Assembly: GCF_024502345.1 (NCBI RefSeq)
Contig: NZ_JALDNN010000001.1
Origin: Escherichia coli
Lineage (GTDB): Bacteria > Pseudomonadota > Gammaproteobacteria > Enterobacterales > Enterobacteriaceae
DNA: 64,000 nucleotides
Direction: 5' to 3' (one strand)
The position numbers and the translations under genes were made by a program. The notes beneath the pieces were generated by a model. The model searched no databases, was not told the origin of the DNA, and worked only from the letters and a program-made list of their open reading frames with translations. Of the stretch, positions 1 to 48,835 are shown one piece after another. Each line of letters begins with the position of its first letter. The stretch's first letter is position 1.

Positions 1-546
1 CATCAGACGGTACGGGACGTTTGAGTTGGTGATGTTTCCGCCATCTACGCCTGTTCCGTACAGGACATGTACAGCCTCATTGCCGTAATCTTTCAGGATC
101 CGCCGAAGATTATCACTGATGGTATCCAGGGCTTCGTCCCAACTTATCCGTTCAAATTTACCTTCACCGCGCTTGCCGACGCGCTTCATGGGATATTTCA
201 ACCTATCAGGATGATTCATCCGTCGGCGGATAGAGCGCCCGCGTAAACACGCTCGAACCTGATGATTACCGTAGACGTCGTCACCTGTCGTATCAGACTC
301 CACCCAGTACACGGTGTCATCTTTCACATGCAAACGTAACAGACAGCGGCTCCCGCAGTTAACGGTGCAGGAACTCCAGACCGCTTTCTCTTCTACCGGA
401 GCCTCTGCCGCCCGGACCATTTGGGAAAATGGCAGAGTGAAAGCACTGCTTGCCAGCGCAAGACTGCCAAGTGCGGAGGTTTTCATCAGACTTCTACGGC
501 TGATTTCAGCCTTCATGAGCGCCTCTGTGGTATGGATTTTCATCAT
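1..546 (-). CDS. ynfF: DMSO reductase-family molybdoenzyme catalytic subunit, N-terminal part only (3' end lies beyond the window start)
   Basis: Minus-strand translation from ATG at 546 gives MMKIHTTEALMKAEISRRSLMK... with twin-arginine Tat motif and N-terminal Cys cluster; paralogous to the adjacent ynfE; RBS-like gagtaATGATG. Confidence 0.85.
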   Translation of the reverse strand, partial: MMKIHTTEALMKAEISRRSLMKTSALGSLALASSAFTLPFSQMVRAAEAPVEEKAVWSSCTVNCGSRCLLRLHVKDDTVYWVESDTTGDDVYGNHQVRACLRGRSIRRRMNHPDRLKYPMKRVGKRGEGKFERISWDEALDTISDNLRRILKDYGNEAVHVLYGTGVDGGNITNSNVPYRLM

Positions 547-603: not shown

Positions 604-3030
604 TTATATTTTTTCGATCTCGACCAGATTAGTGTGCTGCGGGTTTCCCTTCGCCAGTGGTGAAGGGCGCAGAGTGGTTAGCGTATTCACACAGCCGCCA
701 TGGTCGATTTTATCGCCAGACATATTGGCCTCGTGCCAGGCTCCCTGGCCCATAGCGCTAACTCCAGGGAGAATACGTGGTGTTACTTTGGCTGGTAGCC
801 GAACTTCGCCACGATGGTTAAACACCCGCACCATATCGCCGTTGGCAATCCCACGTTTCTGCGCATCTATAGGGTTGATCCACACCTCCTGACGGCAGGC
901 AGCCTTCAGGAGATCAATATTGCCGTAGGTCGAGTGAGTACGGGATTTGTAATGGAAACCAAACAGTTGCAGTGGGAAGGTTCTACGTTCAGGGGAGTTC
1001 CAGCCTTCAAAGGTTGAGGCATAAACTGGCAATGGGCTTATCACTTCATCTTTTTCCAGTTCCCAGGTACGGGCAATTTCCGCCAGCCTGCTGGAATAAA
1101 TTTCAATCTTACCGGAAGGCGTTTTAAGTGGATTTGCCTCGGGGTCGTCACGAAATGCTTTGTAGGCGACAAAATGGCCATTGGGATCTTTACGCTTATA
1201 GATACCCATTTTTTTCAGTTCGTCGTAAGACGGTAACGCCGGATCTTTGGCAAGCATTTTGGCGTACAGATGTTGTAACCATTGTTCCTGCGTGCGACCT
1301 TCTGTGAACTTTTGATAGACGTCAGGTCCAAGACGTTTCGCGACTTCACTCAGGATCCAGTAAATCGGTTTGCGTTCGAATTTTTCGCTGGTGACAGGCT
1401 GGAGGAAAATGAGATATCCCATGTTACCGGCGTAGTCGTTAGGAATAATATCTTCCTGCTCAACGGTCATCAGGTCTGGCAGCAGAATGTCGGCATATTT
1501 TGCCGATGAGGTCATAAAGTTTTCGATGACCACAATCATTTCGCATTTCGATTCGTCCTGCAGAATTTCATGCGTTTTGTTGATGTCAGAATGCTGATTA
1601 ACGAGGGTATTTCCCGCGTAGTTCCAGATGAACTTAATGGGCACATCCAGTTTATCTTTGCCGCGGACGCCGTCGCGGATTGCCGTCATTTGCGGACCAT
1701 GATCGATAGCATCTGTCCAGCTGAAGCAGGAGATTGACGTTTTGACCGGATTATCCAGCACCGGCAGGCGTTCTATGGTAATGGTATAGGTCGATTCACG
1801 CGCGCCACTATTTCCGCCGCTGATGCCGACATTGCCCGTCAAAATAGGTAACATAGCAATAGCGCGTGCAGTCAGTTCGCCGTTTGCCTGGCGTTGCGGC
1901 CCCCAGCCCTGGCAGATATAAGCGGGTTTTGCTGTGCCAATTTCACGCGCCAGTTTGATGATACGGTCTACCGGGATACCGGTAATTTGCGAAGCCCACT
2001 GCGGCGTTTTCGCTGTGTTATCATCACCTTCACCAAGAATATAGGCTTTATAGTGACCATTTTTGGGTGCATCTGCGGGTAAGGTTTTTTCGTCATAGCC
2101 GACGCAGTATTTATCGAGAAAAGGTTGATCAACGAGATTTTCGTTAATCAATACCCAGGCAATACCCGCAACCAGCGCGGCATCGGTGCCCGGGCGAATA
2201 GGGAGCCATTCATCTTCACGACCAGCAGCCGTATCGGTATATCGCGGATCGATAACAATCATTTTGGCGTTCGATTTCTCGCGCGCTTTTTCAAGAAGAT
2301 AAGTGATGCCACCGCCGCTCATGCGGGTTTCTGCCGGGTTGTTACCAAACATCACGACCAGCTTGCTGTTTTCAATATCCGTGGTGCTGTTGCCATCATT
2401 ACTGCCGTAGGTGTAGGGCATGGCACAGGAAATTTGCGCGGTGCTGTAGGAGCCATACTGATTGAGTGAACCGCCGTAGCAGTTCATCAGGCGTTTGACC
2501 GCCGAGGCTGATGGCGAAGAGCGGGTCATATTGCCGCCAACGATCCCCGAAGAGTACTGAATATATACAGCCTCATTGCCATATTGTTCGACGGTTTTTT
2601 TCAGGCTACTGGCGATAGTATCCAGGGCTTCATCCCAGCTAATCCGTTCGAATTTGCCTTCACCGCGTTTACCCACGCGTTTCATTGGGTAATTCAAGCG
2701 ATCGGGATGATTAATACGCCGGCGGATGGAGCGACCGCGCAAACAGGCGCGTACCTGATGGTTGCCGTACTCATCGCTGCCGGTATTGTCAGTTTCCACC
2801 TAGGTCACTTCATTATCTTTAACATGTAGACGAAGTGCACAGCGGCTACCACAGTTGACGGAACAGGCACCCCAGACCACTTTTTCGCGGGCCTGTTGTA
2901 CCGCTGCTGCTGCACTGCGCAGGGTAAACGGCAAAGAAAAACCGCCTGCAGCCAGCGCCAGAGAACCTATCGCGGTAGATTTAACGAGTGTTCTGCGGCT
3001 GATGCCCACCATTCGTTCATTTTTGGACAT
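604..3030 (-). pseudogene. ynfE: DMSO/selenate reductase-family catalytic subunit YnfE, interrupted by an in-frame amber codon at 2802..2800
   Basis: ORF track gives two same-frame contiguous ORFs (2800..3030 Tat signal + Cys cluster; 604..2799 molybdopterin oxidoreductase body) separated only by TAG; paralog in window has TGG at aligned codon. Confidence 0.8.
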
Positions 3031-48793: not shown

Positions 48794-48835
48794 GAGTATA
48801 GTTATTCTTATTTCCCTTCTTTTAGAGCTGGCTTG

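Follow-up and report, generated by a model that had tools for sequence, protein, structure and literature searches.

An amber codon at a former Dcm site interrupts ynfE in Escherichia coli and recurs on independent haplotypes

We found that ynfE, a gene for the catalytic subunit of a selenate/tellurate reductase, is interrupted by an amber codon in a 64-kb stretch of Escherichia coli DNA, hereafter referred to as the window. A single spontaneous transition, from C to T, very probably inactivated the gene; it affected the internal cytosine of a Dcm site, so that CCAGG became CTAGG. The stop lies in an ancestral Dcm context, the mutated base is the internal cytosine of that site, the same change is observed on independent haplotypes, and the tryptophan codon has been replaced by TAG in preference to TGA. 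We consider that exactly this base, position 2801 of the plus strand, has been altered repeatedly because the 5-methylcytosine of Dcm (CCWGG) sites constitutes a mutational hotspot. The features concerned are listed in Table 1.

Table 1. Positions in the window of ynfE, its premature stop codon and the features related to them
Feature	Position	Strand	Basis
ynfE, selenate/tellurate reductase catalytic subunit (DmsA/YnfE/YnfF family), with one nonsense mutation	604..3030	-	translation, identity, synteny
Amber TAG in place of Trp77 (TGG)	2800..2802	-	plus-strand CTA
Former Dcm site, ancestral plus-strand CCAGG (coding CCTGG), now CTAGG	2800..2804		direct reading
N-terminal 76-codon remnant of ynfE, with Tat signal and C56, C60 and C64	2800..3030	-	translation, ORF list
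Remaining 731 codons of ynfE, GTG start adjoining the stop, molybdopterin- and MGD-binding domains, C96	604..2799	-	ORF list
Paralogue ynfF, 5' part, open in the window	1..543	-	aligned Trp codon 306..304

The gene was identified as the ynfE orthologue by its full-length identity, synteny, twin-arginine signal, Cys motif and molybdopterin- and MGD-binding domains. It is 99.9% identical over 2427 nt to the annotated ynfE of many E. coli genomes, and a 401-base query around the stop retrieved ynfE from 5295 of 5426 complete E. coli genomes, the best matches having one mismatch. The gene order is the usual one for E. coli (ynfF, ynfE, ynfD, ynfC, speG, ynfB, ynfA and rspAB onward), with ynfD upstream and ynfF downstream of ynfE in the same orientation. 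Compared with ynfE of strain KW21, the gene shows only two differences, nt 1501 (I501V) and nt 230 G>A (W77*), the latter being the one-base change at plus-strand position 2801 that the initial annotation had named.

Translation of the minus strand from position 3030 down to 604 gave a frame of 808 codons, in which the TAG at codon 77 was the sole internal stop, in agreement with the single in-frame amber that had been described from the sequence. The product around this position reads ...HVKDNEVT*VETDNTGSDEYGNHQ..., and the ORF listing accordingly breaks the gene into a 76-aa and a 731-aa ORF. According to the initial annotation, both the Tat signal and the whole Cys cluster preceded the stop. 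This holds for the Tat signal (SRRTLVK, residues 11-17); however, the Fe-S motif straddles the stop, with C56, C60 and C64 before it and the fourth cysteine, C96, after it. Similarly, the conservation that had been claimed for the replaced tryptophan held in YnfE, YnfF and NarG, but not in the perchlorate reductase PcrA. The codon of ynfF aligned with the stop is TGG, as had been claimed (...HVKDDTVYWVESD...), and it occurs there as TAC-TGG, which is not a Dcm site. Precomputed domain matches were available for identical proteins: the 76-aa peptide matches Pfam PF04879 weakly, and the 731-codon remainder, in which an export signal is absent, matches PF00384 and PF01568.

We then considered the sequence context of the stop. 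Restoration of the G in codon 77 gives the coding sequence ACC TGG GTG, in which CCTGG occupies nt 227-231 of ynfE. Base 2801, which pairs with the mutated G of the coding strand, is the internal, methylatable C of CCAGG and has been altered to T. Both an ancestral CCWGG and a C>T change at its internal cytosine were thus found at codon 77. The mutation also newly formed the hexamer CCTAGG at 2799-2804. As a separate observation, the tetranucleotide CTAG occurs 10 times in the 64-kb window, compared with about 250 occurrences expected at equal base use, and one of the ten is the ynfE mutation.

Dcm methylates CCWGG, and deamination of the methylated base yields CTWGG with a T:G mismatch, which is a substrate of Vsr and, when left unrepaired, results in a C>T transition (PMC2715241). 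In the case of ynfE, Dcm would have methylated the internal cytosine (plus-strand 2801) of CCAGG, and the resulting 5-methylcytosine would have deaminated to thymine. The T:G mismatch would have escaped very-short-patch (Vsr) repair and been fixed by replication, changing the TGG of Trp77 to TAG, so that translation would end after 76 residues. We infer both that position 2801 is methylated in the strain of the window and that the change arose by deamination and not from an error of replication. The dcm and vsr loci lie outside the window.

The predicted phenotypic consequence of W77* is that ynfE would yield no functional catalytic subunit, a loss that would be tolerated through the paralogous isoenzyme YnfF, encoded in the same operon. 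The 76-residue product would be unable to bind the molybdenum cofactor, and a protein restarted from the neighboring GTG would have no export signal, while its Fe-S site would be incomplete. YnfE and YnfF have been described as selenate reductase isoenzymes that are paralogues of one another, encoded by ynfEFGH-dmsD (PMC12724226, PMC5203670). Because the two are such isoenzymes and the part of ynfF contained in the window is open, the loss of ynfE is probably buffered by ynfF. The premature stop could also lower the expression of the downstream genes ynfFGH and dmsD through polarity.

The lesion is isolated in a region that is otherwise undecayed, since ynfE alone among 46 conserved genes of the window has an internal stop; the other 45 are full-length and without stops compared with their annotated relatives. 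A decaying genome of the Shigella type was accordingly rejected for this region. Because the remainder of ynfE is undamaged, the mutation is recent in its lineage. Recent pseudogenization, which the initial annotation had listed beside a sequencing error and amber suppression, is therefore the reading that gained support: the gene is otherwise undamaged, a near-identical wild-type allele exists, and five genomes carry RefSeq pseudogene flags at the same place (see below).

With regard to the background of this lineage, none of the 5426 complete E. coli genomes was closer to the window than 98.9% (positions 1-25 kb) or 98.3% (25-50 kb), and the closest fragment found was a Logan contig of SRR30884154 (99.88% over 8.4 kb). 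By contrast, ynfE itself is 99.9% identical to common alleles. The lineage has no representative among the complete genomes, and its sequence in this region appears mosaic.

We searched for the same allele in other genomes. An exact 61-mer centered on the TAG was present in 5 complete E. coli genomes of about 5290 with ynfE, namely those of strains 97.3 (NZ_CP061758.1), KFu015 (NZ_CP147130.1), TUM14664 (NZ_CP135649.1), 102651 (NZ_CP189662.1) and CUWW11 (NZ_CP182154.1), which originate from the USA, Japan, Gambia and Thailand. In each of the five, the RefSeq record of ynfE is flagged pseudo, internal stop, so that the W77 TAG already stands as a pseudogene allele in the annotation of other E. 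coli. In a collection of 15 billion proteins, the exact 76-aa product (Ser39 type) was found on 21 contigs of public assemblies and its Asn39 (K-12-type) variant on 102. In all 20 of the distinct contigs that were fetched, codon 77 is TAG and not TGA, and the 731-codon remainder comes after it. The initial annotation had proposed that reads or orthologue alignments showing TGG at this codon in this strain would speak against the stop. Among the orthologues, TGG does stand at codon 77 in >99.8% of complete genomes, yet the identical TAG also occurs in independent assemblies. The W77 TAG allele therefore exists in nature.

These assemblies also bear on the possibility that sequencing or consensus building introduced the T at 2801 in error, for example as an uncorrected nanopore miscall at a Dcm-methylated CCWGG. 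The altered base coincides with the methylated position of the Dcm motif, and modification-induced nanopore errors have been documented, CCWGG included (PMC11610603). However, many independent assemblies, multi-contig drafts as well as RefSeq complete genomes, carry exactly this allele. Furthermore, when 35.7 kb was compared with a relative, the methylatable Dcm positions differed in 2 of 190 cases (1.05%), compared with 1.26% of all positions; only one of these two differences, the change in ynfE, was C>T, and the remaining eight Dcm sites of ynfE were unchanged. Because the Dcm sites of the window are not unusually altered, nothing points to a systematic error linked to methylation, and we regard an error at 2801 as quite improbable.

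Alternatively, ynfE might still be expressed via amber suppression by a supE-like tRNA or via read-through, the TAG then being a sense or regulated codon. Laboratory K-12 strains carrying supE exist, and suppression is formally possible in that the rest of ynfE is intact, although a recent mutation equally predicts an intact downstream frame. A tRNA scan detected no tRNA gene, and hence no suppressor tRNA, within the 64-kb window. In addition, the TAG is not conserved but sporadic on unrelated haplotypes, against TGG in nearly all genomes as stated above, and in strain 102651, which bears the TAG, the 3' half of ynfE is missing as well, as expected of a dead gene. Continued expression through the stop is therefore extremely improbable, and a recent loss of the gene remains the preferred reading.

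To determine how often the TAG had arisen, we compared the haplotypes that carry it. The TAG-bearing ynfE genes formed about eight haplotype groups, up to 35 of 2427 bases apart, and for four of these backgrounds wild-type twins were sought by searching the haplotype against the complete genomes. The haplotype of strain 97.3 differed from ynfE of K-12 MG1655 at the TAG base only, and so did haplotype L010 from ynfE of O103:H2 and O45:H2 Shiga-toxin strains. The haplotype of the window (twin in KW21 and others) and haplotype L013 (twin in several strains) each differed at the TAG base plus one. These four backgrounds are mutually 14-34 SNPs apart, with some of the SNPs located 22-130 bases from the stop. 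For a further haplotype, L017, the nearest wild type was about 11 mismatches away. Because wild-type twins exist for haplotypes that are unlike each other, the TAG has arisen repeatedly, on at least four backgrounds, and repeated independent mutation is far more parsimonious than the spread of one ancestral allele.

We further analyzed the kind of stop that replaces tryptophan codons of ynfE. A TGG codon becomes a stop by either of two single G>A transitions, giving TAG or TGA, and TAG alone matches the methylated cytosine. At W77, which has a Dcm context, we counted 20 TAG, no TGA and no contig ends, and at W292, which also has one, 5 TAG, 1 TGA and no contig ends. At W275, which has none, there were 2 TAG, 4 TGA and 4 contig ends. 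TAG and TGA were thus unequally distributed across the Trp codons (Fisher test, P = 0.002), with the reservation that not every locus represents an independent event. W292 itself (GCC TGG, positions 2155-2157) is intact in the window, and its TAG recurs elsewhere (loci L024-L029), on 20 and 37 contigs of the two backgrounds described below.

The nine Dcm sites of ynfE include seven that are amber-capable, at codons 77, 292, 374, 381, 656, 762 and 765. We counted the exact truncated YnfE products by contig on two protein backgrounds, Ser39 and Asn39. Protein polymorphism past residue 337 splits these backgrounds, and the non-Dcm controls were taken from the first 337 codons. On the Ser39 background, W77 and W292 were represented by 21 and 20 contigs and the controls by 5, 0, 6, 0, 18, 0, 6 and 7, while on the Asn39 background the values were 102 and 37 versus 14, 10, 0, 10 and 13; all these counts are semi-quantitative, as clonal spread is mixed with independent events and some control counts represent contig ends. 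Exact rank tests of the Dcm-context Trp codons against the controls gave P = 0.022 (Ser39) and P = 0.048 (Asn39). The non-Dcm codon Q158 accounted for the 18 contigs on one background. The Dcm-context Gln codons Q374 and Q381 showed no clear excess, with 7 and 4 contigs compared with 4 and 4 for neighboring controls. The enrichment at Dcm sites is accordingly clear for Trp codons only, and the comparison with non-Dcm sites is supportive, not conclusive.

The recurrence of the stop might also reflect positive selection for the loss of YnfE, for instance if YnfE hampers the assembly of YnfFGH or competes for DmsD. Lubitz and Weiner reportedly observed in 2003 that YnfE expression hindered the accumulation of YnfFGH. 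Moreover, ynfE is disrupted in other ways, including a 353-aa frameshift, an IS5 insertion (H114), a 3' deletion and nonsense mutations at non-Dcm codons. However, such varied disruptions are equally expected from relaxed selection on a redundant paralogue, and selection would neither prefer TAG to TGA at codon 77, where all 20 stops are TAG, nor make Trp codons in a Dcm context the focus of such events. The allele is also rare, being found in only 5 of about 5290 complete genomes. We therefore consider selection for YnfE loss unlikely as the explanation of the recurrence, although it is compatible with a Dcm hotspot as the mutational source. A stronger version, in which the Dcm site of Trp77 (and that of Trp292) would be a built-in, high-rate off switch of ynfE, repeatedly selected to shift to YnfF or to free DmsD, seems very unlikely.

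The frameshifted YnfE mentioned above (P0103, 353 residues) diverges after about residue 332 and is present on 360 contigs, so that at least one widespread E. coli lineage carries a different ynfE pseudogene. The varied ynfE disruptions in public genomes fit relaxed selection on a redundant gene.

Rearrangements were also observed elsewhere in the window. An IS5-family element of 1058 bp is present in three copies, at 48835-49892 (+), 52247-53304 (-) and about 60688-61755 (+), which are 99.3% identical to an element annotated as IS903B in E. coli MSHS 472. In the third copy, a 1-bp indel occurs near 60949/60950, and the transposase ORF encodes only 279 aa. An autotransporter gene of the ECSE_1600 family is split into two parts, 49862-51793 (-) and 53215-56694 (+): two IS903B copies in inverted orientation enclose its first 634 codons, themselves inverted, and codons about 632-1629 lie on the other strand. 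Compared with E. coli MSHS 472, this arrangement is an inversion mediated by the IS copies. The segment 58600-60690, which separates hipA from the third IS copy, lacks an equivalent in the E. coli locus used for comparison, and it contains a 464-aa ORF (58739-60133) for which only a very weak tyrosine-recombinase match was found.

For the annotation of this genome, these results indicate that ynfE should be recorded as a pseudogene and that selenate/tellurate reduction would depend on ynfF. They also provide a practical rule: stops in CTAGG or CCTAG that derive from CCWGG are likely to be real recurrent mutations, but such sites are also those at which long-read consensus errors should be excluded. 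On a small scale, the stop illustrates how a textbook laboratory hotspot, the 5-methylcytosine of Dcm sites, can be recognized by its recurrent trace in the genomes of wild E. coli and Shigella.

The ynfE of the window is an ordinary, isolated and recent nonsense pseudogene at a hotspot of known type, and in this sense it is not novel. Its closest counterparts are the five RefSeq pseudogenes, which share the TAG at codon 77 in the same gene and the same neighborhood. Their ynfE haplotypes are, however, 11-15 SNPs from that of the window, so that they do not belong to the same lineage, and strain 102651 differs additionally in lacking the 3' half of the gene. Another stop of this type was found in ynfE of Shigella flexneri (CP037996.1; locus L041, 2620-2622), where Gln374 is lost by a change from TGC CAG GGC to TGC TAG GGC. 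As at W77, CCAGG became CTAGG at a Dcm site of the same gene, but the codon is a different one and the methylated C lies on the coding strand. The classical precedent is lacI: Coulondre and co-workers reportedly assigned its amber hotspots in 1978 to 5-methylcytosine at Dcm sites (CCAGG), and Lieb is said to have described in 1991 how deamination of 5-methylcytosine is countered by Vsr very-short-patch repair. The lacI hotspots and ynfE W77 have in common an ancestral CCWGG, a C>T change of the internal cytosine to give CTWGG, an amber codon as the outcome and independent recurrence. They differ in that the methylated C of ynfE W77 is on the template strand, so that TGG becomes TAG, whereas in lacI CAG becomes TAG on the coding strand. 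Finally, the lacI hotspots were defined in a laboratory mutant collection, whereas the W77 stop is a natural polymorphism in wild genomes, at a site whose methylation is presumed from its sequence.
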